DNA of 64,000 bases from an uncultured virus (IMG/VR IMGVR_UViG_3300031687_001114) (IMGVR_UViG_3300031687_001114:1-64000); one strand, 5' to 3'; positions 708 to 35,658 are shown, counted from the stretch's first letter. Translations and numbers: made by a program. The notes: generated by a model not told the origin, from the sequence alone.

Positions 708-1382
708 CTATTTGTAACCTATTTGCATGTAGCGACTATATGCTGGAGTTACCATACTGCCCACGTACTTGGTATTGCTTAATGGGTATTTGCTTATCAT
801 ATCCTCTATGCTGTTGCATGTATTAATATGTCCATCAAAGGATTCGCTGTTATTAGTTTGCATTATAATTAATTGATCCGAGTCAACAGTATCAAACCAA
901 TCGCTATTCATATGTTCACAACTGGTATTAATAATCCAATCGGGTTTAACCGTAATTAATTCCCCTCCAGTTTCAAACTCACAGTTACTTAAATCTAAAT
1001 GTGTAGCATCAGCAACAACTCCTTTGTAACGCCAGCCTGCTAGATACTTTTGGTTCAGTCGTTCACTTAAATCTTGTGCAGTGGGATCAGCATCAACTCC
1101 GTATATACGTTCTATAGTTAATGCTCTGTGCAGTGGATCAACTAGACTGCCTATCCAACTGCCTAATATAATCACAGTGGCATTAGCTTGTAATGGAGAT
1201 ACTTTATACAGTTCGCCTAACAGCCAGCTCTTGGATGCTAACTGTCCTTTGCTGAATGCATGTTTAGGATACAAACTGCTGTGTTGTACTATATGCTCGA
1301 ACTGGCTCATGCTTACTTTCAAGAAGCCTGCATCGATATAATCGTTAACCGCTTCCCATGTGTCTAGTTTAATTTCATTCAT
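708..1382 (-). CDS. Class I SAM-dependent methyltransferase-like protein
   Basis: Gly-containing motif I (IILGSWIG), acidic motif II (YGVDAD), DWIINTSCEHM; start MNEIK chosen because it forms an ATGA overlap with the upstream small ORF. Confidence 0.7.
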   Translation of the reverse strand: MNEIKLDTWEAVNDYIDAGFLKVSMSQFEHIVQHSSLYPKHAFSKGQLASKSWLLGELYKVSPLQANATVIILGSWIGSLVDPLHRALTIERIYGVDADPTAQDLSERLNQKYLAGWRYKGVVADATHLDLSNCEFETGGELITVKPDWIINTSCEHMNSDWFDTVDSDQLIIMQTNNSESFDGHINTCNSIEDMISKYPLSNTKYVGSMVTPAYSRYMQIGYK

Positions 1383-1528
1383 TTTATTCTCTCTAACATT
1401 TCTAATACTGTGCATAGTTCAGCAACTGAGCTGTCTAACACCATGTGAGCAACTTCGTTATCGTTCTTGGCTCTCTCCTCACATAACATATCTATTCTTA
1501 CTCTGAGGTACTTTTCAATTTTATCCAT
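1379..1528 (-). CDS. Small hypothetical protein (49 aa, MDKIEKYLRVRIDML...)
   Basis: Read manually; fills the gap between flanking genes and overlaps the next start by ATGA. Confidence 0.55.
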   Translation of the reverse strand: MDKIEKYLRVRIDMLCEERAKNDNEVAHMVLDSSVAELCTVLEMLERIK

Positions 1529-1704
1529 TCCTCTATCCTCTCTAGTACTGCGTTCTTTTCTTCATCTGTGGCTGTGTACCAGTCACGCATCTCAGTAGCA
1601 GTTCTGTAACAGCCGATGCAGTACTCACTGTTCACATCAAACGTACATATTTTAATGCAAGGTGATGGTACCATACTGCGTGGTCTAGCTTTACCTCTTC
1701 TCAT
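1498..1704 (-). CDS. DUF1289/YdhL-like small cysteine-rich (predicted Fe-S) protein
   Basis: SPCIKIC-x8-CIGCYRT-x2-E-x3-W pattern characteristic of DUF1289. Confidence 0.8.
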   Translation of the reverse strand: MRRGKARPRSMVPSPCIKICTFDVNSEYCIGCYRTATEMRDWYTATDEEKNAVLERIEEWIKLKSTSE

Positions 1705-4700: not shown

Positions 4701-5575
4701 TCTTCGTTGTCTATATAGAACACATCATACGCTTCGTCCTCTACTGGACATGCAGGATGTATTTTAAGTTCCGCGTCTTTCCAATTCATAGGCACTAGTC
4801 TAATGCCACCCATACCCAACGGATACTTTTCTTTTAATTGGTATGGCATTTTAAAACTGTGTACAAAGTCTTTCTCAAAAGGATTAGGAACCCAGTCAAG
4901 TGTTTTAGTATTAATAGTATGTTCTTTATCTATTAACCAAACATATTCGTTTGTGTGTACATCACGCTGACTGTAATCGTCTACGTCGGTAACAAACATA
5001 AACGGTATGTCTAAGTCTGCATTTAAGAAGCCGTGGTATTTAATTTGTGCGTCTTTCCAATCACGTGGATATAATTTAATGCCACCTTCTTCTTTTGGAT
5101 ACTTATGTTCTAGTTGTCCCCTTAAATGAAAACTGTGTATGAAGTCTGGTTCAAAGTTCCCCGGTGCCCAATCGATGTTTTCAGTTATTTTATATTCAGG
5201 ATCAACGCACCAAACATGTGTGCTACTAGAGTTATCAAAGTAGTCCCCCGGTGTCGTGCTTGTTAGTACGTTGAATGTTTTTGTACATGCTACTGCATTG
5301 TGATGGAATGTTTCTGGAAACCCAATTGGCTTTTTAACTTTTAATGTTACTCCGCCATAGTTCAATTGGTTCCACTTCCAAACATGTTCGTAATTTTTTG
5401 TATGCGAGTCTGGCTTAAAGTCAAATATACTATAGTCGGTAACAGTAATGTCTTCTTCGATGAACCAATACATTGATGTATTGCTAGAGATAGCAGACAC
5501 GTTACTGACTTGTTGTGCAAAAGGTAACTGCTCTACTAGAGCTTCGTTCTCTCCTACATAAAAAATATCATACAT
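1691..5575 (-). CDS. 1,294-aa multi-module glycosyltransferase-like protein (~12 tandem GT-A-like repeats)
   Basis: Repeated [YF]D[IV]FY...W[FVI][VI]D...[YF]xP...H[VI][WF]...GG[VI][KR]L units; C-terminal unit has DGD and WRSAFRECVKL, matching the single-domain protein at 30616-31611. Confidence 0.65.
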   Translation of the reverse strand: MYDIFYVGENEALVEQLPFAQQVSNVSAISSNTSMYWFIEEDITVTDYSIFDFKPDSHTKNYEHVWKWNQLNYGGVTLKVKKPIGFPETFHHNAVACTKTFNVLTSTTPGDYFDNSSSTHVWCVDPEYKITENIDWAPGNFEPDFIHSFHLRGQLEHKYPKEEGGIKLYPRDWKDAQIKYHGFLNADLDIPFMFVTDVDDYSQRDVHTNEYVWLIDKEHTINTKTLDWVPNPFEKDFVHSFKMPYQLKEKYPLGMGGIRLVPMNWKDAELKIHPACPVEDEAYDVFYIDNEDFNAETYSDYAERSKTEWFWIVDREFQFNGKLLYVPASHELDYIHVFKIPSHLEERYPADFTDAWDTRCGGVRLMNKHFDVTKHKYQEDICPVRYDIFYADNISDYDTPARKSRTKMFWLVDNEHQINEEFNYVPQQHDTKYIHIFKFPDDLEHKYPKAITNISDNRAGGIKLVPRSGSEDSKFIATNPVGGRSYPIIYTDEGMDRVDADCWILPTAFNDISHIPWSPTTFERNTKHIFNGILIWMPKDWNGDVKVHDMSPVALTYEFETYSSYQEGLAKSTHAWFWVVDPDVDVLVGFDFDFQPDVFDDGKQHVWQKLNPVTGKQYDYGGVSLRNKNEGKGRPKYIREPACTQKKYPVYHIQPEELLQPLDGVYEALALQTTVSMMWVVDAHVQVDADFDYSYYPTQYDKDVVHMWQHAGSSKQSGVKLMPVAHYTLEQIKENSYVKLKELPKVASRDPIWPVEQLEHMTSKEIQDVLAKHSDVGYVWTVDPDIELTETVIAESIIPHVNNTNVVHVWKRTDAEGLVIGHGGLRLWPTTYNASQLTDEQVLTCSIPDQLILNAVAGEQKEYPICYLNSDKDIIDQLLLFEMNLDSNMYWVVDPHSTLVSDWKFDYVPTKWEEHVVHVWIDSIDAQRGVRLVPTGTFTNTKFTVKQLINNSFKDLKPVYRVATTPTTWECFALNTETPLLKQLNNYKNVTTGDYFYTIDPDVTPIPEFEYSYTPQLDGLNKVHTWQRVNPRTNKTHSYGGIRLWHKGIEGLTSDDIQLNKMPRGTLQYVKATASVYKPYDIVLITYAQNNAHELLEALPDESILVSDVDGIFTAHQQASNSVSSSMFWVVDGDADVSTDFDFSYIPDVYDQDVTHVWNSANPVTGDTYGYGGVKLFNTNAVRGATTWGIDFTTGLGKRFKVMPEVACTTRFNTDAYSTWRSAFRECVKLATSTDADAQQRLGAWLNATEGDYSDQAVAGANAGNDYAGRNRGNTVALELINDYEWLEAQYEKR

Positions 5576-5903
5576 CTATTTTGTGTCCTACTACTGCGTT
5601 TATATATTTATTGATATGGTCTAGTCCGTTGTCTAGGTTTTCTAATTCACGGAACATTAATTGGTTAGCACTAAAGCAACAATCGTCTCGGTGATGTCTT
5701 GCACTAATCTTACACACATGACAGTTCCCTTTTAGTTTCCAGAACATCATTTCCTCTGGAGTTAACAGTGGATCATATAGCCATGGGTTGCGTGATACTT
5801 CGGTAGGCGATAGTTCGCTATAGTCGTGGTCCGCAAGTAGTTCTTTAACGTAACCGTTTATGCCTATTGCTTCTATTCGTTCTTTAACTTTTTCGTTAGT
5901 CAC
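5568..5903 (-). CDS. Hypothetical protein with CxxC...CC motif
   Basis: ORF between carbamoyltransferase and the repeat protein; probable GTG start overlapping upstream stop; CHVC...DDCC. Confidence 0.5.
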   Translation of the reverse strand: MTNEKVKERIEAIGINGYVKELLADHDYSELSPTEVSRNPWLYDPLLTPEEMMFWKLKGNCHVCKISARHHRDDCCFSANQLMFRELENLDNGLDHINKYINAVVGHKIDV

Positions 5904-7440
5904 TTGTATGTACTCTGATGTTGTAATGGTTTGTAAAAGCAGTAGCATCTTCTTTAGTATTAACTATTGGCTGACCTTTAACATTGAGACTCGTATTGAG
6001 AACAATAGGACAACCTGATACTTTGTGCCATTCGGATAGTGCTTCATATAGTTCAGGGTGCTGTTTTCTATTAACAGTCTGAACCCTACTCGTTCCATCC
6101 CCATGTACGACAGCAGGTATTTCATCTGGACGTTTGCATTTTGCTACAAACTGCATGTATGGACTTTCGTTTAAACCGCCCGGCAGTTCAAACCAATCTT
6201 GTACATGTTCTTCTAAAATGATAGGAGCAAACGGTCTAAACTTTTGTCTACGTTTAATTTCATTTACTCTATCCTTAATCTCTTCCCCTCTAGGATCAGC
6301 AAATAAACTTCTGTTCCCTAATGCTCTAGGACCAAACTCTGCTCTGCCATTGGCAACTCCAAAGATTTCCCCATTGTTTAAACTCTCGACAAACTTCCTT
6401 ACGGGCCACTTGCCTTCTATTACAGTTCCTAAGTAAGGAGTTTTCCATTCTACTTTCTTTAATGTATCTGCAAAATGTAAGAATGCCGCGGCACCTAAAC
6501 TACTTCCAGCATCACCTGGGTTAGGCATTATGTGTACGTCATCGAATATATCAAACAGTTTACTATTAGCAACACAGTTTAATGCACAGCCACCCATGAA
6601 CACTAAGTTCTTACTATGAGTGTACTTGTAGGCTAACTCCGCGTATTCCATAATTCTTTCTTCACATACTAACTGAGCACTTGCGGCTAAGTCGTACTTA
6701 ATTTGTTCGTTACCCGGAATGTTTAAATTGTTTATTAAGAAGTCGTCTGGTAAGCCTCTACTCATATCAATGGTGTGTAGACACTCTCCTCTATTCTCTT
6801 TAGTAATCTTTTCATGCTTAAACAATTGCTTACGCATCTGTTTAGCGAATATCGGATTACCGTATGCCGCCATTCCCATTAGCACATATTCATCTTCCAT
6901 AGGCTTCAGTCCTACTCTGGCTGTTACAGCACTATAGAATAAACCTAGACTACTTGGGAAGTTTGTTTCGTGTACCAATTCAAACTTGCCACCTCGTTCT
7001 TCATACCTGTATATGGTTGCAGTCTGCACTTCGCCTATTGCATCGATAGTCATTATAGCACACTCGTCGAAGTCACTAGTAAGTACTCCTGCGGCGGCAT
7101 GACTTTGATGATGTAATGTATGCTGAACTGGAATACCGTCTAGCTGTGGATAAAATCTTTTAAGCCATTGCTCGGCAGTTGGTTCCGTGAACACAGCCTT
7201 AACTGCATCCATTCTCAGTTGTTTTAGTCTACGTTTAGACTTTAACTTACTATCCTCATGCATTACTATAACATCTGGCATGCCAAATGTCAATGCTTCT
7301 GCCATTAATTCTTTGTGTAAGAAAGGATCGTTCTTCTTTCTACTATAACGTTCGCTGTGACCAGCAAACATAATCTTGCCTTCGTCGACTACACAAACAG
7401 ACGCATCATGGAACATACAACTTATACCAAGTATTCTCAT
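5896..7440 (-). CDS. Carbamoyltransferase, CmcH/NodU family
   Basis: ILGIS..HDAS, ERYSRKK, HHQSHAA, IDAIGE, SLGLFY, GGCALNCVAN, EFGPRALGNRS, FRPFAP, VHGDGTSRVQTV, LNTSLN motifs. Confidence 0.95.
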   Translation of the reverse strand: MRILGISCMFHDASVCVVDEGKIMFAGHSERYSRKKNDPFLHKELMAEALTFGMPDVIVMHEDSKLKSKRRLKQLRMDAVKAVFTEPTAEQWLKRFYPQLDGIPVQHTLHHQSHAAAGVLTSDFDECAIMTIDAIGEVQTATIYRYEERGGKFELVHETNFPSSLGLFYSAVTARVGLKPMEDEYVLMGMAAYGNPIFAKQMRKQLFKHEKITKENRGECLHTIDMSRGLPDDFLINNLNIPGNEQIKYDLAASAQLVCEERIMEYAELAYKYTHSKNLVFMGGCALNCVANSKLFDIFDDVHIMPNPGDAGSSLGAAAFLHFADTLKKVEWKTPYLGTVIEGKWPVRKFVESLNNGEIFGVANGRAEFGPRALGNRSLFADPRGEEIKDRVNEIKRRQKFRPFAPIILEEHVQDWFELPGGLNESPYMQFVAKCKRPDEIPAVVHGDGTSRVQTVNRKQHPELYEALSEWHKVSGCPIVLNTSLNVKGQPIVNTKEDATAFTNHYNIRVHTSD

Positions 7441-7658
7441 CTATAAATAAATGGATCTGCTTTACGGATTTGTTCTAACTTATCCTTCAGCATCTCTTCT
7501 TCCTCATCAGTAAGATTTAATTCGGGTACATCGGGTACTTCAATTTCTGTAGGGCCTCTAAGTACTTCAGCTTTCTTACTTATTGGATTACCCTGCAAGT
7601 CACCGTGGTCGATAATCTCTGTTACCTCTTCGGCTAGTTCGTTTCTTTCTTCTGGCAT
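7437..7658 (-). CDS. Small acidic hypothetical protein ending ...KADPFIYR
   Basis: 73-aa ORF coupled by overlap to the carbamoyltransferase start. Confidence 0.6.
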   Translation of the reverse strand: MPEERNELAEEVTEIIDHGDLQGNPISKKAEVLRGPTEIEVPDVPELNLTDEEEEMLKDKLEQIRKADPFIYR

Positions 7659-8374
7659 TATAATTCCTCTATAAACTTTTTAACTTCATTTGCATATAGC
7701 GTGTGTAAATGCTTATCTGCGTGGTACCATTCTGAGAAGTGTGAAGCGTTTTCTTCTGTGTCGTACCTTTCTATAAAACTATCTTCACTCTCAAAGAACA
7801 CATCATGCGGGAACGTATGCATTAAATGTTTTAATCTTAAATGATCAAACGTCTCTGCTTTTATTGACGCACAATTATTTACCTGTATGTGATCAACTTC
7901 GTAAGATTTTAAGAACGAATCTAGCATAGTCATATAAGTTATTTTTTTAAACAGTCCAAAGTTATAGTCTGTGTGATATAACTGCAATGCTTTGAACCAT
8001 GTAGTGAAGTCGCCAGTGTTTTTGTATTGTTCTGCATCAGATCCGTTTGCCCAATGTATATGTTGATCTTCCCATGTAAACTCTACTCGTTCGTTAGTAG
8101 TCCAGCCTACACATACAAGTAACTCCTTTGGATCTCTTCCTTGATATACCCACTGACTAACATAGTCAATAGTGGATCGCATGATGTATTCATTACTGCC
8201 ACCCGGTGCTGAATGATTTGTGTAGTTAAGTTCAAACGCTCTAGCAAGTTGTCCGGGCCATGCATGGACAATATTTTGTTTAGTAGCCGCAGTTGTTCCT
8301 GGGCCACATATCTCACTACCTGCCATATGGCTACAACCGATTGCGTATAAGTGTGTTTTGTCTTTTAAATCCAT
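7658..8374 (-). CDS. SGNH/GDSL-like hydrolase or acyltransferase fold protein
   Basis: GCSHMAG block I, PGGSN block II, C-terminal WYH (DxxH-equivalent). Confidence 0.6.
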   Translation of the reverse strand: MDLKDKTHLYAIGCSHMAGSEICGPGTTAATKQNIVHAWPGQLARAFELNYTNHSAPGGSNEYIMRSTIDYVSQWVYQGRDPKELLVCVGWTTNERVEFTWEDQHIHWANGSDAEQYKNTGDFTTWFKALQLYHTDYNFGLFKKITYMTMLDSFLKSYEVDHIQVNNCASIKAETFDHLRLKHLMHTFPHDVFFESEDSFIERYDTEENASHFSEWYHADKHLHTLYANEVKKFIEEL

Positions 8375-9682
8375 TTACCAATCCAGTAATTTGTATAAGT
8401 CTGGCAGACTGTCTGCTAAACTTTGGTTACGTTTATCATCTAATAACAATGTGTAACGTTTGAATATTTCCATTTGCGTTTCAGCATCATCGTTAACTTG
8501 GTCATCGCCCAATGCATTAATAATTCCTAGCACTGTTTGTTTATTCCTTTCATCGTTAGCAAAGTATGTACTAGTATCAAGCCAGTGATGTAATCTACTC
8601 TTTGCTTCGTCTCTAATGTTCTTAGGCAAGTTACGAATGTCTAAGCATTTAGGATAGTTGTTCATTAAGAAACTAATGTCTATTCGTCTACCACTTAGTT
8701 CAGTGATCTCTTCAGCATAGTCTAGTAAGTCTGTTATATTTAATATGTTATATATTTGTACAACAGGACTAAACAACAAGTTACCTACAACTTTAGAATC
8801 AGCATACTCTTTAATATGCTTATCTACTATAGACCATTTGCTTCCACTTCTAATATATTCATTGGTGGTACTGTAGCCATCAACACTTAAACACATCAAC
8901 ACATCTCTAAACTTGACTACTAAGTCTAGGAACCTGGGTTGTATGTTAGTCATGTTAGAGTTGAACACTAAGTCAATGTCCTTAGCAATACCCATCTCTA
9001 CACATTTTTCTAGTATCCAATATACACGTTGTATAATAGTTGGCTCACCACCCGTAAAGTATAATCTATTTACATTAGGTAACCACTCCTCTACTGTTGC
9101 TAAGAAGTCTGGCTCATCGAACCAAGGGATAGTGTAATCGTCGAACTGCTCCCAATGAGTGTTCTCTATTACGAATGCACGTTCTTCTTCTGTGTATATA
9201 GTATCGTCTTTTAATTCTTTATATATAGCACTACTGTTTTGGCTCTGACACATTCTACATTTTAAGTTACATAGTGTGCCAAGTCTAAAGTCTAAGTATT
9301 GCGGTGACTCCTCTACGAAGTAATCGTTGTTAATACTCTTGTCTATTATCTTTTTAATCTCTGGAGCATTTCTATGGAAGCCCATCCAGTCTTTGATATA
9401 GTTTTCTCTGTAACTAGGTATGCCCAAGTCTTCTAATTGGTAGCAAGGCTCACACCCTTCTACTTGGTCGCCTTCTATCATTTGCTTTCTTATCTTACGA
9501 TAGTGTTTCCCATTCCAAACATCTTCAATCTTATCACCACGGTCTAACATAATAGGATGCTTGTCGTCATTGTCTCGTTTCACTTGCCCACTAGCAACAC
9601 AGCAAAAGTTAACTGTGCTTGTTGGCTGTGTCATTACATGTATCCAAGGATACGGACAAAATGTTTTACTATAGTCCGTCAT
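8375..9682 (-). CDS. Radical SAM protein with N-terminal SPASM/twitch-like domain (#1)
   Basis: CPYPW...FCC...CEPC N-terminal; CNLKCRMC (CxxxCxxC); TGGEPT; start MTDYSK. Confidence 0.92.
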   Translation of the reverse strand: MTDYSKTFCPYPWIHVMTQPTSTVNFCCVASGQVKRDNDDKHPIMLDRGDKIEDVWNGKHYRKIRKQMIEGDQVEGCEPCYQLEDLGIPSYRENYIKDWMGFHRNAPEIKKIIDKSINNDYFVEESPQYLDFRLGTLCNLKCRMCQSQNSSAIYKELKDDTIYTEEERAFVIENTHWEQFDDYTIPWFDEPDFLATVEEWLPNVNRLYFTGGEPTIIQRVYWILEKCVEMGIAKDIDLVFNSNMTNIQPRFLDLVVKFRDVLMCLSVDGYSTTNEYIRSGSKWSIVDKHIKEYADSKVVGNLLFSPVVQIYNILNITDLLDYAEEITELSGRRIDISFLMNNYPKCLDIRNLPKNIRDEAKSRLHHWLDTSTYFANDERNKQTVLGIINALGDDQVNDDAETQMEIFKRYTLLLDDKRNQSLADSLPDLYKLLDW

Positions 9683-10898: not shown

Positions 10899-10901
10899 TA
10901 C

Positions 10902-11063
10902 TTAATCCTTGTTCCCATAGATGATATCTACTAACGAGTCTTCGTCATTGTCATCCGGTGTAAAATTATCGTCGGGTGCAATCTCGGCATCAGCATTTGC
11001 AAATCGTCTGCGTTGTATGGCGTCCCAATTAATATCTAGCGCCTGTTTTTCTTTATCAGTCAT
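10902..11063 (-). CDS. Small acidic hypothetical peptide (~53 aa)
   Basis: ORF wedged between two radical SAM genes with overlapping start; Asp-rich with PDDN repeated twice. Confidence 0.5.
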   Translation of the reverse strand: MTDKEKQALDINWDAIQRRRFANADAEIAPDDNFTPDDNDEDSLVDIIYGNKD

Positions 11064-27947: not shown

Positions 27948-27983
27948 TATTTATATTATAACATGAATTGCTTAATAAATCAA
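27948..27983 (-). promoter_or_regulatory. Overlapping sigma70 promoter (TTGATT-N17-TATAAT) and perfect T4-late TATAAATA upstream of metK
   Basis: Minus strand reads TTGATT TATTAAGCAATTCATGT TATAAT ATAAATA. Confidence 0.65.
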
Positions 27984-28303
27984 GCAACAAATAATCCTTT
28001 CATGCTTTTACCTTTTGACATATCACCGTTGAATGTCATTTTGCCACCCATAACTAATTTAACTGGGTCAGCGCCTTTAGTAAACATCTCAATCATTGTA
28101 TCTTTGCTAACAAATCCTACAGTGATGTCTGCTTTATCTAAATGCTCGTTACACAGAATACATTTCTTATCGTGTACACTAATAGAAAACTTACCATTAG
28201 TTTCACTAATAACATTAACGTTAATATCAATATCAATGCCTTCTGATTTTTCTTTCTGAAATTTACCTTCTAAGTCTGTTTTAATTGTGCCAAAGTCTAA
28301 CAT
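27980..28303 (-). CDS. SCP2 sterol/lipid-binding domain protein
   Basis: ADITV...MFTKGADPVKLVMGGKMTFNGDM signature; start MLDFG with AGGAGG RBS. Confidence 0.8.
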   Translation of the reverse strand: MLDFGTIKTDLEGKFQKEKSEGIDIDINVNVISETNGKFSISVHDKKCILCNEHLDKADITVGFVSKDTMIEMFTKGADPVKLVMGGKMTFNGDMSKGKSMKGLFVA

Positions 28304-28331
28304 ATTATCCTCCTTTTGGATATTAAGTTTT

Positions 28332-29966
28332 TCATAGCAATGCTTCTGCCTCTTCACATTGTTGCCAAAATTGATGCATCTCTGGAAATGTTGCTAAGAA
28401 ATTTGTGTCTCTTCTTGCGTCATGTTCGCTAAAGAATTTAAAAAAGTCTGCTCTGTCTCTTCTTAACTTATCACTATCGATGTCTTGTTTCATTATATCT
28501 AAGTTACGTTTTGCTTTAGCAATTTCAAAATCTTTAAAACCTCTGTAGTCTACATAGTCTTCAGTTGCTTTGTTATCTTCCATAAATTGAATTGCTTCCT
28601 GCATGTAGTCACAATACTCGCTAGGTAGTACATGTATACTTTGCCATGCTGGTGCTCTAAGCAATGGAATGTCAAACCATATACGTTGCTCCGGAACTTC
28701 CCAACCCATTGCAAACTGGTTCTCTTTACTCCACTTATCTCTAAGGTCTAATATTCCTTGTAGGAATTCTGTAAAACTTGTAACACTTAAACAGTTAAAC
28801 GTGTTAATAAAATTAATACTAGTAAATCTAGTTTCGTCTAAAAACCTATGACAGTTATTCCACACAGTATCAAATACCATACCATTACGCATATACTCTG
28901 CTTGTTCGCCCCAACCATCTAAACTACAAAACACACTAAAGTTATGATATGCTTTGTCGTTGTATTCGTAAATATATGTGAAACTATTGTTATCCTGTTC
29001 TTCGCATTGTCCAACTTGCATAAACGTTTGCGGTATCTCTTCTCGTTCTATTACTGCTAAGTTGCTGTCGTGATAACGTTTTGCATCAGCGCCAATTATA
29101 GCATGATCCCATGTTTGCCAATCTGTGCCGTCTAGTGGATCTGCTACATATACTTCTGCACCATGTTGTACATTATCTAATCTCTTAACTGAATCTAAAA
29201 ACTTTACAAACAATGCATCGTTGGCAGGACACATGTTTGTTGTTATACTTAATTCTAAATCTTTATTTGGATTTGCTAATACATAATCTAATACTTTAAA
29301 AGTATTCTTATCCATTAATGGCTCACCACCAGTCATACGAAACACACGAAGTGTTTTATACATCTCGGGCCACCACTTCCAAAACGCTGTAACGTATGGA
29401 TTAAGATCCTGTTTTACTTTTAATGGCATTAAGTTTTTTAGTGCAAGACTGTCAATATTATTATGTGGAGCAGTAGTTGGATATTCCCCAAACTCGTCTA
29501 TCTCTTCTTGCCATGCTGTACTTAAATGTGGAGAACAATAACTGCACTTGAAGTTACATGCTTGATTAAAGTTTACTTCTACATAACGTGGATTGATGTT
29601 GCCACTAGCACCAGCATCTAAAATATCTTCTTTACTTTCTTGTGCCCAATACTCGCCACTGCGATATACTCTGTCACTTCTTGCACCCGTATCTTCTATG
29701 TCCCAACAATAACTACAGCCATCTGGTCTCTCGCCTTTAAGCATTTGTCTGCGTTGTTCTTTCTTTTCTTTTGTGTTATGTAGTGCTGTTGGATTATCTT
29801 TTAACTCATCTAACGGAATTGAATGTGTAGGCGGATGATAGCAACTGTGTGTTTGACCATTTGTTAAGTGCATAGATACCTGAGACCATTTAGCATAACA
29901 CATGCTAGGACTAATATTATCTAGTTGCTCTTTAGCCTTATCAGCGGCTTGGTCGTATATGCTCAT
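28332..29966 (-). CDS. Radical SAM protein, C.AKW/SCYHP N-terminal subtype (#8), internal insertion
   Basis: CYAKW...SCYHP...CSYCW; CNFKCSYC; TGGEPLM; TTN; SLDG. Confidence 0.92.
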   Translation of the reverse strand: MSIYDQAADKAKEQLDNISPSMCYAKWSQVSMHLTNGQTHSCYHPPTHSIPLDELKDNPTALHNTKEKKEQRRQMLKGERPDGCSYCWDIEDTGARSDRVYRSGEYWAQESKEDILDAGASGNINPRYVEVNFNQACNFKCSYCSPHLSTAWQEEIDEFGEYPTTAPHNNIDSLALKNLMPLKVKQDLNPYVTAFWKWWPEMYKTLRVFRMTGGEPLMDKNTFKVLDYVLANPNKDLELSITTNMCPANDALFVKFLDSVKRLDNVQHGAEVYVADPLDGTDWQTWDHAIIGADAKRYHDSNLAVIEREEIPQTFMQVGQCEEQDNNSFTYIYEYNDKAYHNFSVFCSLDGWGEQAEYMRNGMVFDTVWNNCHRFLDETRFTSINFINTFNCLSVTSFTEFLQGILDLRDKWSKENQFAMGWEVPEQRIWFDIPLLRAPAWQSIHVLPSEYCDYMQEAIQFMEDNKATEDYVDYRGFKDFEIAKAKRNLDIMKQDIDSDKLRRDRADFFKFFSEHDARRDTNFLATFPEMHQFWQQCEEAEALL

Positions 29967-30610
29967 ACGGTAATTCCGTGCGTTTTGAAGAACGATTTCA
30001 TGAGATGGCTGATTAATGTTACTTCACCATTCATAGTTTCGTATTCGGAGTCATCCAGATCTCCATTGATAATTCTAGCAGTTGCCTCAGCCCAGAGCTC
30101 TGGTGCCTGGTCCATGCCGCCAGGACATATTCCGTATGCGTTGTTGTTAGGCTCGATTGCAATACATTTCATTAGTTGTTGCTCTGCCGATCTAAGATAC
30201 CTGTATGAAAGGTTCTCGAAGCCATACTCTCTTCTACCCAAAGTAACAGAACTAGTGATAAAAATAAATTGTTTACAATGACTTAAGATATCATATATAG
30301 CTAATTTGCCATACATTGTTTGTTGTAGGTTGTCGTCATTTTCCTTTTTAAAAGTTTCAACATGATCTAAGTAATATGTGTCGGCAACATTCCTACGCTT
30401 ATATTTTGGTGTAGCACCACCAACAACTCTCTGATTAAATACTACCACATCTGGATCAGGGTATTTACTAAACTCTGTTTCCATCTGTGCCGGGTCAGTA
30501 TAGTCGAGAGTATCTCTACCTAATTTAATAACGTTGTGTCCGGAACCCGTTAGATAGCCAGCAATTGACAAAGGATATTGTGTTGTGGATCCTATTAAGT
30601 ATATAACCAT
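29963..30610 (-). CDS. Divergent SDR/Rossmann-fold protein
   Basis: YLIGST, DVVVFN, FITSS, YLRSAE, ICPGG; catalytic YxxxK not intact. Confidence 0.5.
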   Translation of the reverse strand: MVIYLIGSTTQYPLSIAGYLTGSGHNVIKLGRDTLDYTDPAQMETEFSKYPDPDVVVFNQRVVGGATPKYKRRNVADTYYLDHVETFKKENDDNLQQTMYGKLAIYDILSHCKQFIFITSSVTLGRREYGFENLSYRYLRSAEQQLMKCIAIEPNNNAYGICPGGMDQAPELWAEATARIINGDLDDSEYETMNGEVTLISHLMKSFFKTHGITV

Positions 30611-30615: not shown

Positions 30616-31611
30616 TTACAGCAATCCTTTTTCTAAAAGTTCTTGTATTTGTTTTTCTCTAACCATTGCACCCCAACGTTTAGGATTAACAAAAGTCTTC
30701 TTAAAGAATTTACACATGTTAGGATTTGGATCGAACAACATCATATCATTAATTTCTTCGTTTAATGTTACACCGATATCCTTGATTGCTATCTCTAACA
30801 TCTCAGGATTATGTGATACTTTAGTGTAAGGGCAAACGACATTGCCTGGGAAACGTGGTAGCACTTGGTTACTAAAGAAATCACTAAACCAGTCATAGTC
30901 TGATATTAAATTAGTATCCCATTCAGTTAATACAGTCATTTGGCATCCAAGCCTTGCTCCGTATATAGCCCACATGCCGTTGTCTATATCACTTCCAATG
31001 TTACACCATGTTTGTAATCTGTTATAGTTCTGCCACCATATCTTATCTTTAAATTCATCTGGCTTTACACGAACACCTTGGTCGGTACTCATTTTAACGC
31101 CTTCTCTAAAGCCTGCTCTGAAGGCTTGAAACGGACTTGCTGTTTGATGTACTTCACTGAATGTGTCGTTAAGTTGTATGTAATCTAGCTTCCAACAAAA
31201 CTCCATACCCTCACCATCTTGTGCGGACTCATGAGTGTTAATTGTTTTAGTATATTCTGTGGGCCAACATTTAAGTCCACCATTACCGTACACTAAACCG
31301 TTTAGAATGTTTTTAGCATTCCAACTAAAAATACATTTACTGATATCATTACCATCATGATCTGTCTCAGGAACATCTAATACTTGTTCGAAGAAATCAT
31401 CCATAACAATATTGTCACCGTCTACTGTGATAAATCGTTCTGTTTCTGATTGGTTAGCACATGCCTTGTGAGCGGCATCGAATCCTGTAACTCCGTGTAC
31501 TCGTTTAGCCCATGGGACCTTGTTTAACAAGTCTGCCCAATGTTCTTCTGCATTTGGCTCGTCATAGCTGATGTAAAAGATATCTAATTCTGTTACGTCT
31601 ATTTTCGCCAT
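30616..31611 (-). CDS. Phage glycosyltransferase (GT-A fold, GT2-like)
   Basis: DIFYISYDEPNAE, GVTGFDAAH, TVDGD (DxD), YGNGGLK, AFRAGFREGVKM. Confidence 0.7.
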   Translation of the reverse strand: MAKIDVTELDIFYISYDEPNAEEHWADLLNKVPWAKRVHGVTGFDAAHKACANQSETERFITVDGDNIVMDDFFEQVLDVPETDHDGNDISKCIFSWNAKNILNGLVYGNGGLKCWPTEYTKTINTHESAQDGEGMEFCWKLDYIQLNDTFSEVHQTASPFQAFRAGFREGVKMSTDQGVRVKPDEFKDKIWWQNYNRLQTWCNIGSDIDNGMWAIYGARLGCQMTVLTEWDTNLISDYDWFSDFFSNQVLPRFPGNVVCPYTKVSHNPEMLEIAIKDIGVTLNEEINDMMLFDPNPNMCKFFKKTFVNPKRWGAMVREKQIQELLEKGLL

Positions 31612-31636: not shown

Positions 31637-32254
31637 TTATACTCTAACGTATTTATCATATATTTTGGAGGTGTATATACTAATGTCGGTAAAATTAGCA
31701 AGTGTATGGGGTAATGTAACTGTTTTATCTTTGTGTAATGCAATACCGTCGACTATAAATTTCTCTATTACAAAATGCGGGTCGCCTTTTTCTGTTGCAT
31801 AAAATTTTAAATTATGCTTTGTTTTATTCTTTTTAATTGTGTTAGCATGTATCTTTACTGTAATCTCTTTTGCAGTCAGGCTTACTTTTACATCAAACGC
31901 ACTACCATTAAAGCCTACGTAGGATTTAACTTCAGTTAAAAAGTTTCCGTTAGTAGTAACTTTGTCACTAGTGTAAGTCTTTAATATAATATGGCAAACA
32001 CCATGTTCATCTCGTTCTATACTGAACTGGGCCATTCCCTTTTTACGTTCATCAATAATTTTACAATCAATAGTTTTAAGTTCTGCAACAGCATTGTCAC
32101 CGATAGATTTTGCTTCAGGCGGCTTAGTACTTTTATATAATATGTCACCATCATCATTGTATACCAAATAAGTAGTATCGTTTTCTGATGCAATTACTTT
32201 TGCTAAACTACCTTTCTCTTGTTTAAGTAGAGCTAATCGTTCACCTGGAGTCAT
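31637..32254 (-). CDS. Hypothetical protein (205 aa)
   Basis: ORF with AGGA RBS; no recognisable motif. Confidence 0.7.
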   Translation of the reverse strand: MTPGERLALLKQEKGSLAKVIASENDTTYLVYNDDGDILYKSTKPPEAKSIGDNAVAELKTIDCKIIDERKKGMAQFSIERDEHGVCHIILKTYTSDKVTTNGNFLTEVKSYVGFNGSAFDVKVSLTAKEITVKIHANTIKKNKTKHNLKFYATEKGDPHFVIEKFIVDGIALHKDKTVTLPHTLANFTDISIYTSKIYDKYVRV

Positions 32255-32263: not shown

Positions 32264-33127
32264 CTATTGGAGATAGTCGCTTTCTAGCTGTGCAACCATA
32301 TCCTTTGTTAGCCATTCCTTTGAAACATAATGAAACGGGTGTGTTATTTGGAAATTGCCTATCTTAAAATCTTTGTAAGACTTATAATATGTAGGCAATG
32401 TTTCAGTCCAATCGGTGTGTACTAAACTTGTTGGAATATTTTGTACTTCGCTTTTCATGTGTATAAACGTAGGTAGTTCTGTCATGTGGTCTGCTGTACA
32501 CTTATCTTTTATTCCTAAGATATGCATAGCAAGGCTGAATGCCACATCTGCACTTAGCCAGTCTGGTTTTCCTTTTGGCATATACTTAAAGTACATACGT
32601 TCCCAATTATGGAATATAATCTCTACCATCTTGAAAAACTCTGTTGCAAGGTCTGACTTTTTAAAATAAAAGAATGCTGTATAAACATTTGGCATATCAT
32701 TTAGTTTTAAGGACTGCCTGTAGTGTGTATCGTATACATGTTCGTCTCTATATGTTTTTACATTAGTACAAGACCATATATCCTTTTGTGCTAAAATATC
32801 CCACCACTGACTTACATCTGTAGGGAACAACATATCCGTGTCTAGTATTACTGTCTCATCATACGGAGTCATGTAATAGTATTTCCACTTGTTATTAATT
32901 TTCCATTCTTTATCTTCAGCATCATCTTCCCAAGGTATATCCACAATGTGATCAAATACTTTTTTGTGTTTTGCTGTAATAAGTTTTTTAGTCCTAGCGT
33001 CAATACACACCGTAAGATTGTTTACAATGCCCTGTGTTAGCTTTAAGTTCATTGCGAGTGCATACGCCTGCTCTAGATAATCTACAGTGCCGTTGTTTTG
33101 TGCTATTACAATGTAACCCTTACTCAT
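32264..33127 (-). CDS. Glycosyltransferase (GT-A, GT8/mannosyltransferase-like), paralog A
   Basis: TPYDETVILDTD (DxD), YTAFFYFKK, SADVAF, FIHMK. Confidence 0.7.
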   Translation of the reverse strand: MSKGYIVIAQNNGTVDYLEQAYALAMNLKLTQGIVNNLTVCIDARTKKLITAKHKKVFDHIVDIPWEDDAEDKEWKINNKWKYYYMTPYDETVILDTDMLFPTDVSQWWDILAQKDIWSCTNVKTYRDEHVYDTHYRQSLKLNDMPNVYTAFFYFKKSDLATEFFKMVEIIFHNWERMYFKYMPKGKPDWLSADVAFSLAMHILGIKDKCTADHMTELPTFIHMKSEVQNIPTSLVHTDWTETLPTYYKSYKDFKIGNFQITHPFHYVSKEWLTKDMVAQLESDYLQ

Positions 33128-33806
33128 TTTCTAATAATCTCTGTGTGTCTTTCCAGTTTGTAACTGCGAACACTTGTTCTGGTTGTAGTTGTACTGCTAG
33201 AGGATAATCATTTCCTGCAGGGTCAACTCTGTCGCCATAAAATTTAATTGAGTCTATGTCGAAGTCTTTTAATATTTGAGACTTATCACATCCCTTTTTA
33301 AATATATCTATACCTGTCTCACCGCCAACTTTTGCACTTAGCTCTGGGAAACGTGTATTAAATCTTTCAGCAATAGCAGTTCTTTCTTGCACTATTAAAT
33401 CGTATTGATAGTAGTGTTCTCTTTGTTGTTTGTTTGCATGTCTACCCACAACACTAAAGTTAACCATGCCGGTTCTCTCTTCTATGTGTAAGCCTGTTTG
33501 TGTTTGCCATTTGCTGTTATCTAATTCGTTTACTAGAAAGAAGCCTGATTCAGCTGGCAACTTCCAATCATTATGACTAAGTTGCTCGTCTTTAGCATAC
33601 ACATCATTACCACTACAGTTATAAACTCTCATACATGCGTTGTAAACTTCATCGCCAATTTGTTCTATTGTCTTTGGTCGGTCACTGCCTGTTACTAAAA
33701 TTACACTATGGGTTTTAGCAAACTCTAAAAACTGTTGTTTAAACTCAGCGTCTATTGTTCCTCTACTAGGAGTTAGTGTGCCATCTACATCAAAGATATA
33801 ATTCAT
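33120..33806 (-). CDS. Phosphomannomutase, eukaryote-type HAD-IIB family
   Basis: FDVDGTLT, VTGSD, IEERTGMVNFS, GGETGIDIF, DK, FYGDR, GNDY; start MNYIFD. Confidence 0.85.
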   Translation of the reverse strand: MNYIFDVDGTLTPSRGTIDAEFKQQFLEFAKTHSVILVTGSDRPKTIEQIGDEVYNACMRVYNCSGNDVYAKDEQLSHNDWKLPAESGFFLVNELDNSKWQTQTGLHIEERTGMVNFSVVGRHANKQQREHYYQYDLIVQERTAIAERFNTRFPELSAKVGGETGIDIFKKGCDKSQILKDFDIDSIKFYGDRVDPAGNDYPLAVQLQPEQVFAVTNWKDTQRLLENE

Positions 33807-33910
33807 GTGTGTGTTACTTCTTTTTTCTTTTATTGAACTGTTTATTAGCATTACGTTGCCAACTCCATTCGAAGAATTTACTAATTGCGTTGCTTATCAT
33901 TCGTTGTAAT

Positions 33911-34153: not shown

Positions 34154-34302
34154 TCTTCTTTAAATAAACAAAATCTAGTTTGCCCATCCTTTGTTTCGTA
34201 CACAAACTGTGTTGCTAATAGTTGTACAACTTTGCCCGTGTTAGTTCTATTAAACCCAGACTCGTGATGCACTATAACATCTTTAAGATTTGGCTTTTTC
34301 AT
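34135..34302 (-). CDS. Small hypothetical protein (55 aa, MKKPNLKDVIVHHESG...)
   Basis: Read manually; GAGG RBS; fills the gap between ORFs. Confidence 0.55.
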   Translation of the reverse strand: MKKPNLKDVIVHHESGFNRTNTGKVVQLLATQFVYETKDGQTRFCLFKEDWKPVK

Positions 34303-34420
34303 CTTGTTCCTCTTCTCGTAAGTCTTCGCCTTCCTTACCTCTAGTGCGATTACCGTCCGAATTTAATTCTGTTAAATCTTGTTGCTTGTTTTTTTGATTG
34401 TGTTCTTCTTCACATGACAT
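34283..34420 (-). CDS. Small charged hypothetical peptide (45 aa, MSCEEEHNQK...)
   Basis: Read manually; overlaps both neighbours. Confidence 0.35.
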   Translation of the reverse strand: MSCEEEHNQKNKQQDLTELNSDGNRTRGKEGEDLREEEQDEKAKS

Positions 34421-35309
34421 GGCTTAGTAACTCCTTACTTACTCTATTTATCGCCCACTTGTTCATAACATGTATATCTACGCCACGCCATCTACATAAC
34501 ATAAAGTCGCCTAGACTTTTTGGCTTCTCTAAGTAGAATATTAATTCATTTTTCTCTGGAGAGGAATGTACATCGTCGGTATCAAATGTTTTATAAAGTG
34601 CAGGCACCGGAAGTTGTGGAACTCCTTTCTCTACAAATCCGGATAGCATGTGTGCGGCTACACTAAAACTGTAATCATTACGATATAAGCCACCGGGCCA
34701 TCTGTACAGTTCTTGGTAGTATTGAGTGTTGTCTCGTACATGTCGTACGGTATTAAAAAACTGTTGTGCATAGTTAGACTTTTTAAAGTAAACTACTGTA
34801 GCCCAATACATAGTGATGCCAACAGGACTCAAACGTTTAAGTGAATCGTCATTACGTTCTGACATAATGTCTTCGTAGTTCCAGTTCATCATTAATTCGT
34901 TGTCGTGTCCCCAACACTGATTTAATACATCACTCATAACTAAGTAGTCTGCATCTATTAGTATTGTTTCATCATATGGACTTAGGTCGTAAGCATCACA
35001 TCTATCTATGTTATAAAACGGAAGTGATGTACTTTTGTGGCTCGTATCTTTGTATGAGCGTCTGTTAATGTTCTTGAATGCTTTGTCTTTAGTTGTTATA
35101 ACAATATTTGATATAGCATTGTGTATGAAATCGTAACCCATTTCATCTAAGTTATAATCATAACTGTATTGGTTTGTAACAACTGTGATATTATCTATAC
35201 CTAAGTTTTCTTTGATATAGTATGCATTTATAGTTGCTAACTTTAGATAATCTATTTCCTCATTGTTATGAGCAAATATTAATATGCCTTTACTTGGAGT
35301 TGTCATCAA
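34410..35309 (-). CDS. Glycosyltransferase (GT-A, GT8/mannosyltransferase-like), paralog B
   Basis: SPYDETILIDAD (DxD), WATVVYFKK, RNDYSFS, HVMNK; clear paralog of 32264-33127. Confidence 0.7.
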   Translation of the reverse strand: MMTTPSKGILIFAHNNEEIDYLKLATINAYYIKENLGIDNITVVTNQYSYDYNLDEMGYDFIHNAISNIVITTKDKAFKNINRRSYKDTSHKSTSLPFYNIDRCDAYDLSPYDETILIDADYLVMSDVLNQCWGHDNELMMNWNYEDIMSERNDDSLKRLSPVGITMYWATVVYFKKSNYAQQFFNTVRHVRDNTQYYQELYRWPGGLYRNDYSFSVAAHMLSGFVEKGVPQLPVPALYKTFDTDDVHSSPEKNELIFYLEKPKSLGDFMLCRWRGVDIHVMNKWAINRVSKELLSHVM

Positions 35310-35658
35310 GTTCCATATCCACCAGCTTATGAACTTTTCTGCTTTTCTTTATTTTGGAATATTCGTAATGATATTCGTTGGTAGCTTCAAAGTACCTTGA
35401 TAGAATCTCTTCTAAGAAATCATCTAGCCCGACAATTTCAATTGGATTGTTATACACATCTAACAGTACTGCTTTAGTGTGCCCTTGTGTTATTAATGTC
35501 TGTACAAACGATATAAGCATTTGAGAAATCTCAAACGTACCACCGTTAGTACTGTAACTTAATAGTGTTTGCACTTTAGATCGAAGTGCGTTGTGTTGTA
35601 CGTTTAGAGTTAATCTATAGTTCGCGAACTCTAATGCTTTGGTTAATTTAGAAGTCAT
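35290..35658 (-). CDS. Hypothetical phage protein (122 aa)
   Basis: First gene after the terminator; ATAAATA 5 nt upstream of ATG. Confidence 0.75.
   Translation of the reverse strand: MTSKLTKALEFANYRLTLNVQHNALRSKVQTLLSYSTNGGTFEISQMLISFVQTLITQGHTKAVLLDVYNNPIEIVGLDDFLEEILSRYFEATNEYHYEYSKIKKSRKVHKLVDMELDDNSK

Follow-up and report, generated by a model that had tools for sequence, protein, structure and literature searches.

The window analysed here, a stretch of 64,000 nucleotides, is a fragment of an uncultured marine jumbo myovirus, and all of its long ORFs lie on the minus strand. Positions 708-35670 (minus strand) form one enzyme unit of about 35 genes (Table 1). The stretch 708-35658 contains 33 ORFs of at least 80 aa, besides two conserved small ORFs encoding a 73-aa peptide and a 68-aa DUF1289 protein, and successive ORFs overlap or abut at 21 of 33 junctions. 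A 45-aa ORF (34283-34420) was dropped because it matched only acidic low-complexity stretches of the relatives. An earlier, sequence-only reading had described about 35 co-oriented, mostly overlapping genes that start right after the fibre block, and this layout was borne out, as the enzyme genes directly follow the fibre genes. The families that it had named fared less evenly. Pfam, NCBIfam and PHROGs confirmed eight radical SAM proteins, MetK, a carbamoyltransferase, a PLP enzyme (PF00155, 24.5 bits, cut-off 19.7), a 2OG oxygenase (PF13640), an NDP-sugar dehydrogenase, a phosphomannomutase (PMM), a fatty-acid-desaturase-like protein, SCP2 and one short-chain dehydrogenase (SDR). GT-A-like, GT8-like and methyltransferase-like proteins can be added to this list, while the GT-B-like pair, the second SDR and the SGNH protein were not confirmed. 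The GT-B-like proteins are paralogues for which the Atlas pointed to GT10 (0.78-0.79); neither they nor the DUF6071 protein had a PDB profile match, and the supposed second SDR had no PDB sequence match. The methyltransferase-like protein gave weak matches, the nearest being the protein/peptide types PCMT and BamL/BpumL. The genes for the desaturase-like protein, SCP2, MetK, SDR, PLP enzyme and 2OG oxygenase are accessory, each being absent from at least some relatives. An Rfam search gave no match at gathering scores, and megablast of 20 kb against phages gave no match. Three features had escaped the earlier reading: the membership of all eight radical SAM proteins in one uncharacterised family, a 12-unit GT-A-derived array and a conserved peptide before the carbamoyltransferase.

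Table 1. Features of the enzyme block and its upstream flank, in window coordinates.
Feature	Position	Strand	Remarks
Class I methyltransferase-like protein, last gene of block	708..1415	-	
68-aa DUF1289 four-Cys protein	1498..1704	-	
1294-aa protein, 12 tandem GT-A-derived units of ~90 aa	1691..5575	-	Last unit inside a complete domain like that of 30616..31611
126-aa protein, no family	5568..5948	-	In closer relatives only
TobZ/NodU/CmcH-type ATP-dependent carbamoyltransferase	5896..7440	-	PF02543 + PF16861
73-aa ORF, last 28 residues conserved (..LK.KLE..RK.DPFIYR)	7437..7658	-	Stop overlaps carbamoyltransferase start
DUF6071 protein, SGNH-like candidate	7658..8374	-	Invariant G-C-S-H
Five N-twitch radical SAM genes, orthogroups 1-5	8375..15755	-	8375-9745, 9669-10898, 11056-12462, 13150-14394, 14391-15755
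Membrane desaturase-like gene	12411-13187	-	PF00487; among orthogroups 1-5
PLP-fold enzyme and prolyl-hydroxylase-type 2OG oxygenase	15742..17414	-	Closer relatives only
NDP-sugar 6-dehydrogenase	17414..18706	-	PF00984/PF03721; ~80% identity in all relatives
Two paralogous 413/448-aa proteins flanking a 261-aa protein without assignment	18766..22113	-	GT-B-like pair, 18766-20112 and 20872-22113
N-twitch radical SAM, orthogroup 6	22116..23534	-	
330-aa acidic protein, no family	23527..24519	-	
N-twitch radical SAM, orthogroup 7	24516..26192	-	71-93% identity in relatives, 50% in RsoM2USA
Short-chain dehydrogenase, accessory	26185..26787	-	PF00106
MetK, SAM synthetase, accessory	26810..27910	-	TIGR01034, 435 bits; window and G001 only
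SCP2-like protein, accessory	27980..28357	-	Window and G001 only
N-twitch radical SAM, orthogroup 8	28332..29966	-	Long form with insert
215-aa protein	29963..30610	-	Second SDR of the sequence-only reading
GT-A-fold protein, large unnamed family	30616..31611	-	D64-x-D66; 80-83% identity in relatives
205-aa basic protein, no family	31637..32254	-	Position conserved
Second GT8-like candidate	32264..33127	-	Paralogue of 34410..35309
Eukaryote-type PMM, accessory	33120..33851	-	PF03332
GT8 (glycogenin)-like GT-A candidate	34410..35309	-	Invariant D-x-D
First gene of block, 122 aa, no family	35290..35658	-	Kept in G001, G002, G003, G005 and RsoM2USA
ATAAATA late-promoter-like motif opening the block	35664..35670	-	
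Intrinsic terminator closing the fibre-gene unit	35680..35707	-	11-bp stem + T-run
Fibre-region genes immediately upstream of block	35722..39617	-	Ser/Thr/Gly-rich 348-aa protein, tail-fibre protein (phrog_19602), 211-aa protein
Further ATAAATA copies	31650, 27948, 18748, 5605; 61011, 39608, 36796		First four in block, last three before structural genes

The sequence-only reading had also placed the same short element, TAAATA, before structural and enzyme genes. The exact T4-late element TATAAATA is present in two copies only, and the 7-mer ATAAATA is the informative form. ATAAATA occurs 13 times in total against 30.9 expected. Nine copies lie on the coding strand, eight of them at most 50 nt ahead of a start codon (binomial P 1e-11; seven of nine without one alternative start that was chosen afterwards), and this placement marks the element as real. 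The genes that follow it include enzyme genes, gp25 (baseplate) and genes of the fibre region. A gp55 homologue was found in all five records (E 4e-8 to 4e-6), and sigma-70-like promoters were no more frequent than in shuffles (49 versus 70, 53 versus 62). Based on these sequence features, the block is probably a late-transcribed unit of a T4-late-like kind; the late control claimed earlier is supported by the shared motif and the gp55 homologue, and the timing of expression itself is a prediction.

All eight radical SAM proteins called in that reading proved to be members of NCBIfam NF033640 (N_Twi_rSAM), scoring 294-353 bits over the full model against a curated cut-off of 170 bits. The CxxxCxxC cysteines (C159, C163 and C166) and the GGEP SAM-binding motif (G232-G233-E234-P235) are invariant in all eight, as are four N-terminal cysteines ahead of the core (C30, C49, C98 and C101), and Pfam gave an N-terminal SPASM match in six. 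Alignment to the twitch domain of BtrN was weak (E 0.049). The best PDB profile match was the peptide enzyme SkfB, followed by the sugar-nucleoside enzyme BlsE (E 1.4e-6), and the nearest solved enzymes are a mixed group that also includes viperin and MoaA, which act on nucleotides. The eight proteins represent eight separate orthogroups, which three diverged relatives (G001, G002 and G003) have in unchanged order; in each of these, every protein has one orthologue with 46-93% identity, compared with 20-37% to its paralogues. Judged by their sequences, the copies are old, non-redundant paralogues. One of them matches 964 protein clusters at E 1e-10 or better, and none of 14 control cellular genomes encodes an NF033640 member above the cut-off. 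A pattern search of genome contigs with a single radical SAM protein gave 18 pattern matches and no relative. In the literature, as far as its text was available, we found no characterised member of NF033640 and no known substrate.

No Pfam, NCBIfam or PHROG family covers the GT-A-fold protein, and PDB sequence searches with single or profile queries gave no match. The top structure matches (VIA) to its AlphaFold model (pLDDT 91.8) are GT-A transferases, with Z 10.0-8.0, rmsd 3.2-3.7 and ~140 residues aligned, and Foldseek gave matches at E 2.5e-4 to 1e-2; the fold matches, some of them to enzymes that glycosylate virus capsids or peptides, include PBCV-1 A64R, Mimivirus R699/R655 and the peptide S-glycosyltransferase SunS. 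Across 45 sequences D64 of the DxD motif is nearly invariant and D66 invariant, and among 14 longer homologues that were scanned, six carry this domain joined to a GT-B domain of GT1/GT28 type. As it lacks a curated GT family or a PDB sequence match, we name it by its fold only, as a GT-A-fold member of an unnamed family. Its DxD core is homologous to the repeat units of the 1294-aa protein (HMM, iE 1.6e-15), which keep D-x-[D/E/H] in 10 of 12 cases. Three of these units fold confidently into compact alpha/beta domains, so it is less likely that the repeat protein serves as an unfolded substrate of the radical SAM proteins. The units matched GT-A folds at Z 2.7-3.8 (VIA) and the repeat segment had no Foldseek match at E 0.001 or better; the assignment of GT-A ancestry therefore rests on the HMM match, and the units may lack catalysis. 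The two GT8-like proteins, in which D119 and D121 are invariant, matched glycogenin weakly by profile (E 0.0024-0.036 over residues 16-125). The GT-A-like calls of the sequence-only reading are thus backed by fold in one case, by homology in the repeat protein and by a weak profile match in the GT8-like pair.

In the carbamoyltransferase, Carbam_trans_N and Carbam_trans_C both scored above their cut-offs (143.9 and 188.6 bits), with phrog_1601 matched at E 5e-102. It reached 153 bits with the NodU model NF041651, for which the cut-off is 1000, and is therefore a member of the family and not NodU. H110, H114, D133 and D310 do not vary across 23 sequences, and they may be the metal ligands of the Kae1-like domain, as in TobZ.

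Synteny, which had been proposed as a check, is kept across the relatives: in G001, G002, G003 and G005 the block keeps its gene order and follows genes for the baseplate, a giant protein and fibres. The cultured Ralstonia phage RsoM2USA carries a mini-version with two N-twitch radical SAM proteins. This lies next to the tail sheath gene and immediately follows ORF356 and ORF359, both described in the RsoM2USA paper as virion proteins, with ORF359 as the tail sheath. ORFs 347-354 and 199-203 of this phage are syntenic with the block, with 33-50% identity in nine genes. Compared with the block, the repeat protein of RsoM2USA has a single unit, the DPFIYR peptide is missing, and neither MetK nor the dehydrogenase is present in the stretches compared. 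Because its genes are split between two separate loci, the earlier view of the block as one pathway is uncertain. These genes carry hypothetical annotations only, and the paper passes over them, with 0 occurrences of 'radical SAM' and 'carbamoyl'. We found no description of such an operon in the literature, and the available text of the Moraphage paper (PMC12619734) does not contain radical SAM, so no link to the operon was found there.

Our best explanation, in which belief and doubt are evenly balanced, is that the enzymes of the block build a glycan in the cytoplasm late in infection and edit it by radical chemistry, with virion proteins as its probable acceptors. PMM and the strongly conserved NDP-sugar 6-dehydrogenase would supply activated sugars, uronic acid included, and the soluble GT-A-fold and glycogenin-like transferases, together with the 12-unit array, would link sugars into a chain on a soluble acceptor. 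The likeliest acceptor would be a fibre or baseplate protein encoded immediately upstream, and the products of the fibre-region genes are candidates; gene position is circumstantial evidence for a target. Each of the eight N-twitch radical SAM proteins, for which we infer a sugar substrate, would initiate an edit at its own position by abstracting hydrogen; BtrN, NeoN, AprD4 and BlsE suggest by analogy that these edits would be oxidation, epimerisation, deoxygenation or decarboxylation. The methyltransferase-like, SGNH-like and TobZ-type carbamoyltransferase proteins would finish the presumably carbamoylated product, and MetK would replenish the SAM consumed. The sugar-directed logic of the sequence-only reading is thereby retained, with the GT-A fold, the GT8-like proteins, the NDP-sugar dehydrogenase, PMM and the carbamoyltransferase all pointing this way. 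A wider claim is possible, and is made tentatively: the N-twitch family may be a new glycan-editing class, its eight copies editing single sugar positions of a chain that soluble viral transferases, the 12-unit array among them, would build on the phage's own fibres with no lipid carrier. Giant aquatic phages would then have a carbamoylated surface coat of unprecedented chemistry. In a bolder variant, the DPFIYR peptide would be a primer or carrier for the product.

An alternative that we consider unlikely is radical chemistry directed at a peptide or protein, in which the peptide would be a precursor, primer or carrier, with sugar, methyl and carbamoyl groups added afterwards. At least 81 viral contigs encode a peptide ending DPF[IV]YR ahead of the carbamoyltransferase gene (60 distinct C-terminal sequences), and 11 of its residues are invariant across 21 sequences. 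This reading would also suit the SkfB match of the radical SAM proteins, the PCMT and BamL/BpumL likeness of the methyltransferase-like protein, the presence of SunS among the fold matches and the resemblance of the GT8 candidates to glycogenin, which glucosylates its own Tyr. Its logic recalls mycofactocin, where a short peptide whose C-terminal Tyr region is conserved, an auxiliary-cluster radical SAM enzyme, a GT-A transferase and a methyltransferase also share one locus. Unlike in mycofactocin, however, Pfam recognised no RRE chaperone domain or peptidase in any block protein, and the peptide gene is coupled to the carbamoyltransferase rather than to a radical SAM gene, overlapping it or lying at most 8 nt away in 21 of 22 orthologous loci. 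Moreover, RsoM2USA has radical SAM proteins and a carbamoyltransferase without the peptide, and a six-residue core is small for eight radical SAM enzymes.

It is quite unlikely that the product is a small, soluble compound resembling aminoglycosides or sugar nucleosides, made in the infected cell, for example for use against the host or competitors, and not attached to the virion. Twitch radical SAM enzymes, a carbamoyltransferase, a PLP enzyme, dehydrogenases, transferases and a methyltransferase are typical of aminoglycoside and nucleoside antibiotic clusters, the core enzymes of the block are all soluble, and BlsE is the second-best PDB match of the radical SAM proteins. Against this, Pfam, NCBIfam and PHROGs recognised no transporter or self-resistance gene in the block, distant relatives consistently keep the link to fibre or sheath genes, the block carries late-type promoters, and a 12-unit transferase-like array would be unusual for such a pathway.

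Remodelling of the host envelope by a glycolipid or a modified surface polysaccharide, which the sequence-only reading had entertained, is weakened and now appears distinctly improbable. The phage does encode a desaturase-like membrane protein, SCP2 and SDRs; carbamoyltransferase homologues are present in 142 phage records, and cyanophages carry carbamoyltransferases in regions read as LPS-related. The lipid-type genes are nevertheless accessory and confined to the window and its closest relatives, the desaturase-like protein is the only one of 33 block proteins (708-35658; 39 scanned in all) with membrane-like segments, and neither Pfam nor NCBIfam recognised a lipid-carrier transferase, flippase, polymerase or ligase family in the block. 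The least probable reading, and a very unlikely one, is that the phage DNA is hypermodified by an edited sugar bearing a carbamoyl group: GT-A/GT-B-fold phage enzymes do glycosylate DNA, and the block includes a 2OG oxygenase and a methyltransferase-like gene, but the DNA transferases described in the available text of 10.1101/2023.12.21.572611 co-occur with a C5-methyltransferase and TET-like oxygenase or with a ThyS-type hydroxymethylase, whereas a ThyA-family gene (PF00303) is absent from all five records, a 91%-complete relative included (control found in 10 of 14 genomes), the 2OG oxygenase is accessory and of prolyl-hydroxylase type, and the block lies among late structural genes, not replication genes.

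Sugar-editing radical SAM enzymes are rare and chemically rich wherever they have been studied, and here eight non-redundant copies share one operon, in a family that is common in aquatic viruses. If the edited glycan does decorate virions, radical chemistry would for the first time be seen to build a phage coat, and this would bear on how abundant marine phages recognise their hosts, are grazed and decay. If the product acts off the virion, the operon would be a large viral natural-product pathway. Either way, it points to novel enzymology and to tandem transferase-like scaffolds of a new kind, and since two cultured phages carry reduced versions, the question is testable.

The virion-glycosylation systems of chlorovirus PBCV-1 (A64R), Mimivirus (fibril glycans) and mycobacteriophages (capsid and tail-tube glycans) are not known to include a radical SAM enzyme or a carbamoyltransferase. 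They share with the block soluble virus-encoded GT-A transferases and sugar-nucleotide enzymes. Glycans on mycobacteriophage virions are cited in PMC12619734. The aminoglycoside and sugar-nucleoside sets (BtrN, NeoN, AprD4, BlsE and TobZ) have, like the block, twitch-type radical SAM enzymes, which in these sets act on sugars, and a TobZ-type carbamoyltransferase. In these sets the twitch domain is C-terminal, whereas that of the block is N-terminal, and the block, a phage late operon, has no recognised cyclitol synthase, export or resistance genes. With other NF033640 proteins the block shares the four-Cys N-terminal domain ahead of CxxxCxxC, and it differs from them in bringing eight paralogues together in one phage operon.

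The high-coordinate end of the window encodes a VgrG-like spike, gp25, a gp6-like wedge of 1457 aa, a tail-fibre protein and an ORF of 5536 aa that includes a YHYH domain. The wedge shares 36% identity with its counterparts in the jumbo phages PA5oct, SCTP-2 and Atu_ph07, and a megablast search with 20 kb of the window returned no match among 50,697 phage records. By its structural genes, the wedge similarity and the megablast result, the window is part of the genome of an uncultured jumbo myovirus. It covers the first 64,000 of the 74,129 bases of its IMG/VR record (21% complete by CheckV); the GC content of the window is 33–41% and its minus strand holds all long ORFs. Downstream of the fibre genes lies a real and well-delimited operon of 33 minus-strand ORFs of at least 80 aa, running from 35658 down to 708, where 21 of 33 junctions overlap or abut. 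For its reactions, product and target, we infer as the likeliest function late, cytoplasmic glycan assembly with radical editing, with the glycan ending on virion proteins, a reading to which we would give an even chance; the fibre-region genes 35722-36768 and 36803-38968 encode candidate acceptors. No description of such an operon turned up in the literature searches.

Pfam, NCBIfam and PHROGs searches bore out enzyme families named in the sequence-only reading, namely eight radical SAM (rSAM) proteins, MetK (435 bits), a carbamoyltransferase with both of its domains, a PLP-fold enzyme, a 2OG oxygenase of the prolyl-hydroxylase type, an NDP-sugar dehydrogenase, a PMM of eukaryote type, a desaturase-like protein that has three His boxes, and SCP2. 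One of the two SDRs proposed there was recovered, the second SDR and the SGNH assignment were not confirmed, and the two proteins called GT-B-like in that reading gave no more than a weak GT10 lead. Among 39 proteins scanned for membrane-like segments, the desaturase-like protein was the only one in the block to contain any, and the giant fibre-region ORF had a single weak one.

All eight rSAM proteins match NCBIfam NF033640 ('twitch domain-containing radical SAM protein') at 294–353 bits, against a cut-off of 170; in this N-twitch family, the auxiliary-cluster domain precedes the core. Their mutual identity is only 20–28%, and four N-terminal Cys residues, CxxxCxxC and GGEP are kept in every one. 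Each has exactly one orthologue in each of the related viral records G001, G002 and G003, with 46–93% identity versus 20–37% to paralogues. By this combination of single orthologues and low paralogue identity, the eight are old, non-redundant enzymes. About 8 to 10 matches above the cut-off were found in each of G001–G004 and at least five in the incomplete record G005, while none was found in 14 control cellular genomes. G001 and G003 contain additional copies, and copy number is still changing among relatives. With one paralogue as query, 964 relatives were retrieved at a threshold of E 1e-10, almost all of them unnamed marine metagenome proteins. A profile of the eight matched the solved enzymes SkfB (3.5e-7), BlsE (1.4e-6), viperin and MoaA, and the BtrN twitch domain at only 0.049; with such mixed matches, homology does not assign a substrate class. 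No literature on the N-twitch family was found, and papers containing the NF033640 name string treat other subjects, as far as their accessible text goes.

The GT-A-like protein is 80–83% identical in relatives and belongs to a family with 1197 representatives at E 0.001 or better, yielding no family in Pfam, NCBIfam or PHROGs and no sequence match in the PDB. The best Foldseek matches of its predicted fold (pLDDT 91.8, pTM 0.90; 45-sequence alignment) are all GT-A: hyaluronan synthase, SunS, PBCV-1 A64R and WrtF (E 2.5e-4 to 1e-2). An independent structure aligner gave Z scores of 10.0–8.0 over ~140 residues, with B4GALNT1, STIV A197, SunS, SpsA, Mimivirus R699 and A64R among the matches. The protein has a conserved DxD at D64 and D66, and among 14 longer homologues scanned, six fuse a domain of this type to a GT1/GT28-type GT-B domain. 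The 1294-aa repeat protein consists of 12 units of ~90 aa (11 at iE 1e-18 to 1e-27), with 10–14 units in orthologues. The repeat-unit HMM matches residues 35–130 of the GT-A-like protein (iE 1.6e-15), and the last unit lies within a complete copy of the GT-A-like domain (27% identity over 246 residues). Across 107 units, W-x-V-D, a Pro, a His and GG..L.P are conserved, and 10 of the 12 window units have D-x-[D/E/H] at the DxD position. A three-unit segment gave a predicted fold with pLDDT 90.1 and pTM 0.85, for which Foldseek found no match at E 0.001 or better; single units align at only Z 2.7–3.8, where the best 50 matches listed are all GT-A or nucleotidyltransferase folds. We read the units as miniaturised GT-A-derived modules, which may not be catalytic.

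Features of the window and related records (window coordinates unless a record is named)
Feature	Coordinates	Strand	Observation
235-aa protein, last gene of block	708-1415	-	class I methyltransferase-like; PDB profile matches BpumL, BamL, PIMT, E 0.04-0.3; Atlas: Methyltransf_31 0.95 (21% of cluster members), PCMT 0.88
Repeat protein	1691-5575	-	
DUF1289 four-Cys protein, 68 aa			E 8e-18; ORF overlaps end of repeat-protein gene
73-aa peptide ORF	7437-7658		
Weak GT10 leads	18766-20112; 20872-22113	-	paralogous to each other
330-aa protein	23527-24519	-	
Second copy of 330-aa protein	G001:C1:31108-32145	-	32% identity; off-operon, opposite strand
GT-A-like protein	30616-31611	-	
Glycogenin-like pair	32264-33127; 34410-35309	-	paralogous; joint profile matches glycogenin, E 0.0024
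Gap of 256 nt	34154-34409		short unconserved ORFs only; matches no Rfam family; downstream of ATAAATA copy 34445-34451
Strong terminator	35707-35680		between Ser/Thr/Gly-rich fibre-region gene and first enzyme gene
ORF (longest form) with internal motif	38982-39617	-	ATAAATA within first codons; site 39602-39617
5536-aa ORF	39640-56250	-	between gp6-like wedge and fibre genes; sole named domain YHYH, residues 1360-1535; counterparts in relatives 3015-4077 aa, 25-37% identity
Hydrolase-like ORF	61384-62034	+	alpha/beta-hydrolase or thioesterase-like, PF12697 at cut-off; only sizeable plus-strand ORF in window; in 1.2-kb gap from gp25 to VgrG-like spike gene
gp55 homologue	G000:C1:67948-68175	+	window's own record, just past window
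Extra N-twitch rSAM	G001:C1:5954-7276		duplicate of 14391 type, 47%
Extra N-twitch rSAM	G003:C1:54067-55164		divergent, 365 aa

The block had been proposed to be under late control. Sigma-70-like sites in the window were not above their frequency in shuffled sequence. ATAAATA is depleted (13 copies versus 30.9 expected). Of its nine copies on the coding strand, eight are found no more than 50 nt upstream of a start codon (seven of nine without one alternative start chosen post hoc), although such positions make up just 3.3% of the window (binomial P 1e-11). The genes behind these copies encode gp25, two fibre-region proteins, the first enzyme of the block, the GT-A-like protein, MetK, the dehydrogenase and the repeat protein. 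The exact T4 late promoter consensus, TATAAATA, occurs twice in the window against 9.5 copies expected, and the depletion of both motifs looks as if they were counter-selected outside promoters. Translation of ORF 38982-39617 probably begins at the ATG at 39602, which lies 5 nt past the motif, a distance also seen at gp25 and 35658. A homologue of T4 gp55 was found in all five records (E 4e-8 to 4e-6); that of the window's record, in a 293-aa frame, shows 33% identity over residues 40–117. Taken together, motif placement and the gp55 homologue support late control of the enzyme block.

When viral contigs were scanned with one rSAM as query, 30 loci were returned, whose gene content was determined by tblastn. 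Nearly all encode five or six rSAMs together with the 235-aa and 1294-aa proteins, the carbamoyltransferase and the dehydrogenase; the last is ~80% identical across all loci. Gene order is fixed across longer stretches of four diverged records: gp25, gp6 and a giant protein of 3015–5536 aa; three fibre-region genes; a 122-aa protein, GT8-like genes and the GT-A-like gene; rSAMs, the dehydrogenase and further rSAMs; and finally the carbamoyltransferase, a repeat protein of 1017–1953 aa and the 235-aa protein, after which the gene strand switches. Seven proteins are accessory, each being absent from some relatives: MetK, SCP2, PMM, the SDR, the PLP enzyme, the desaturase-like protein and the 2OG oxygenase.

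The 73-aa ORF fills the gap ahead of the carbamoyltransferase gene, its start overlapping the preceding stop and its stop the next start. Conservation is concentrated in the last 28 residues (11 invariant in 21 sequences). At 21 of the 22 orthologous loci, the peptide end either overlaps the carbamoyltransferase start or is separated from it by no more than 8 nt. Scanning viral contigs for a degenerate peptide end with an ATGA overlap matched at least 81 stretches; 76 of the 81 listed contain a basic helix, which was not part of the search pattern, and 60 C-terminal sequences are distinct. At least 63 of the 81 ORFs lead straight into a carbamoyltransferase N-terminus and four into the start of an SGNH-like protein. 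The ORFs are between 17 and 138 aa long, with the final ~20 residues nearly constant, and N-terminal classes include acidic, 'LLDHYKTFDHEHPEVQFQ' and Trp-rich 'IWEWLSWP' types. The peptide may be a small carbamoyltransferase subunit, or it may be a carrier or precursor. By analogy, it may also be a regulatory nascent peptide, a role that fits the confinement of conservation to the C-terminal end directly before the stop codon. The same pattern is known from arrest peptides, among them TnaC and SpeFL. A peptide-directed pathway has a small probability in our estimate; its DPFIYR end was not found in Ralstonia phage RsoM2USA, which carries a smaller version of the operon.

We consider it improbable that the block makes a soluble natural product. 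Remodelling of the host envelope is weakened as an explanation, since the core of the block contains no membrane enzymes. Glycan hypermodification of phage DNA is highly improbable, as the ThyA family is absent from all five records, including the 91%-complete G001, with the control positive in 10 of 14 genomes; the control of the TET-like oxygenase search was silent. According to the accessible text of a preprint on DNA transferases, these accompany a C5-methyltransferase and a TET-like oxygenase, or a ThyS-type enzyme, and 'Radical SAM' and 'carbamoyl' have no occurrences in that text (10.1101/2023.12.21.572611).

Cultured phages provide a point of comparison. Vibrio phages K566 and K567 are cultured carriers; for K566, two NF033640 copies exceed the cut-off and three others score lower. 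The 344-kb genome of RsoM2USA encodes two N-twitch rSAMs and a syntenic mini-version of the operon split over two loci. Locus A starts with a 35290-like gene and a pair of GT8-like genes, followed by an unnamed gene, the GT-A-like gene (49%), an rSAM of the 28332 type, a single-unit form of the C-terminal domain of the repeat protein (35%, E 8e-30) and a methyltransferase-like gene. Locus B comprises an SGNH-like gene, a 24516-type rSAM (50%), a second SGNH-like gene and the carbamoyltransferase (44%). By comparison with the single-unit form, the 11 extra repeat units are an expansion in the aquatic clade. Neither radical SAM nor carbamoyl is mentioned in the accessible text of the RsoM2USA paper, which reports ORF356 and ORF359 as virion proteins by mass spectrometry (PMC8504454). 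Locus A lies directly after ORF356 and a few genes downstream of ORF359, the tail sheath, and the association of the operon with tail genes is old.
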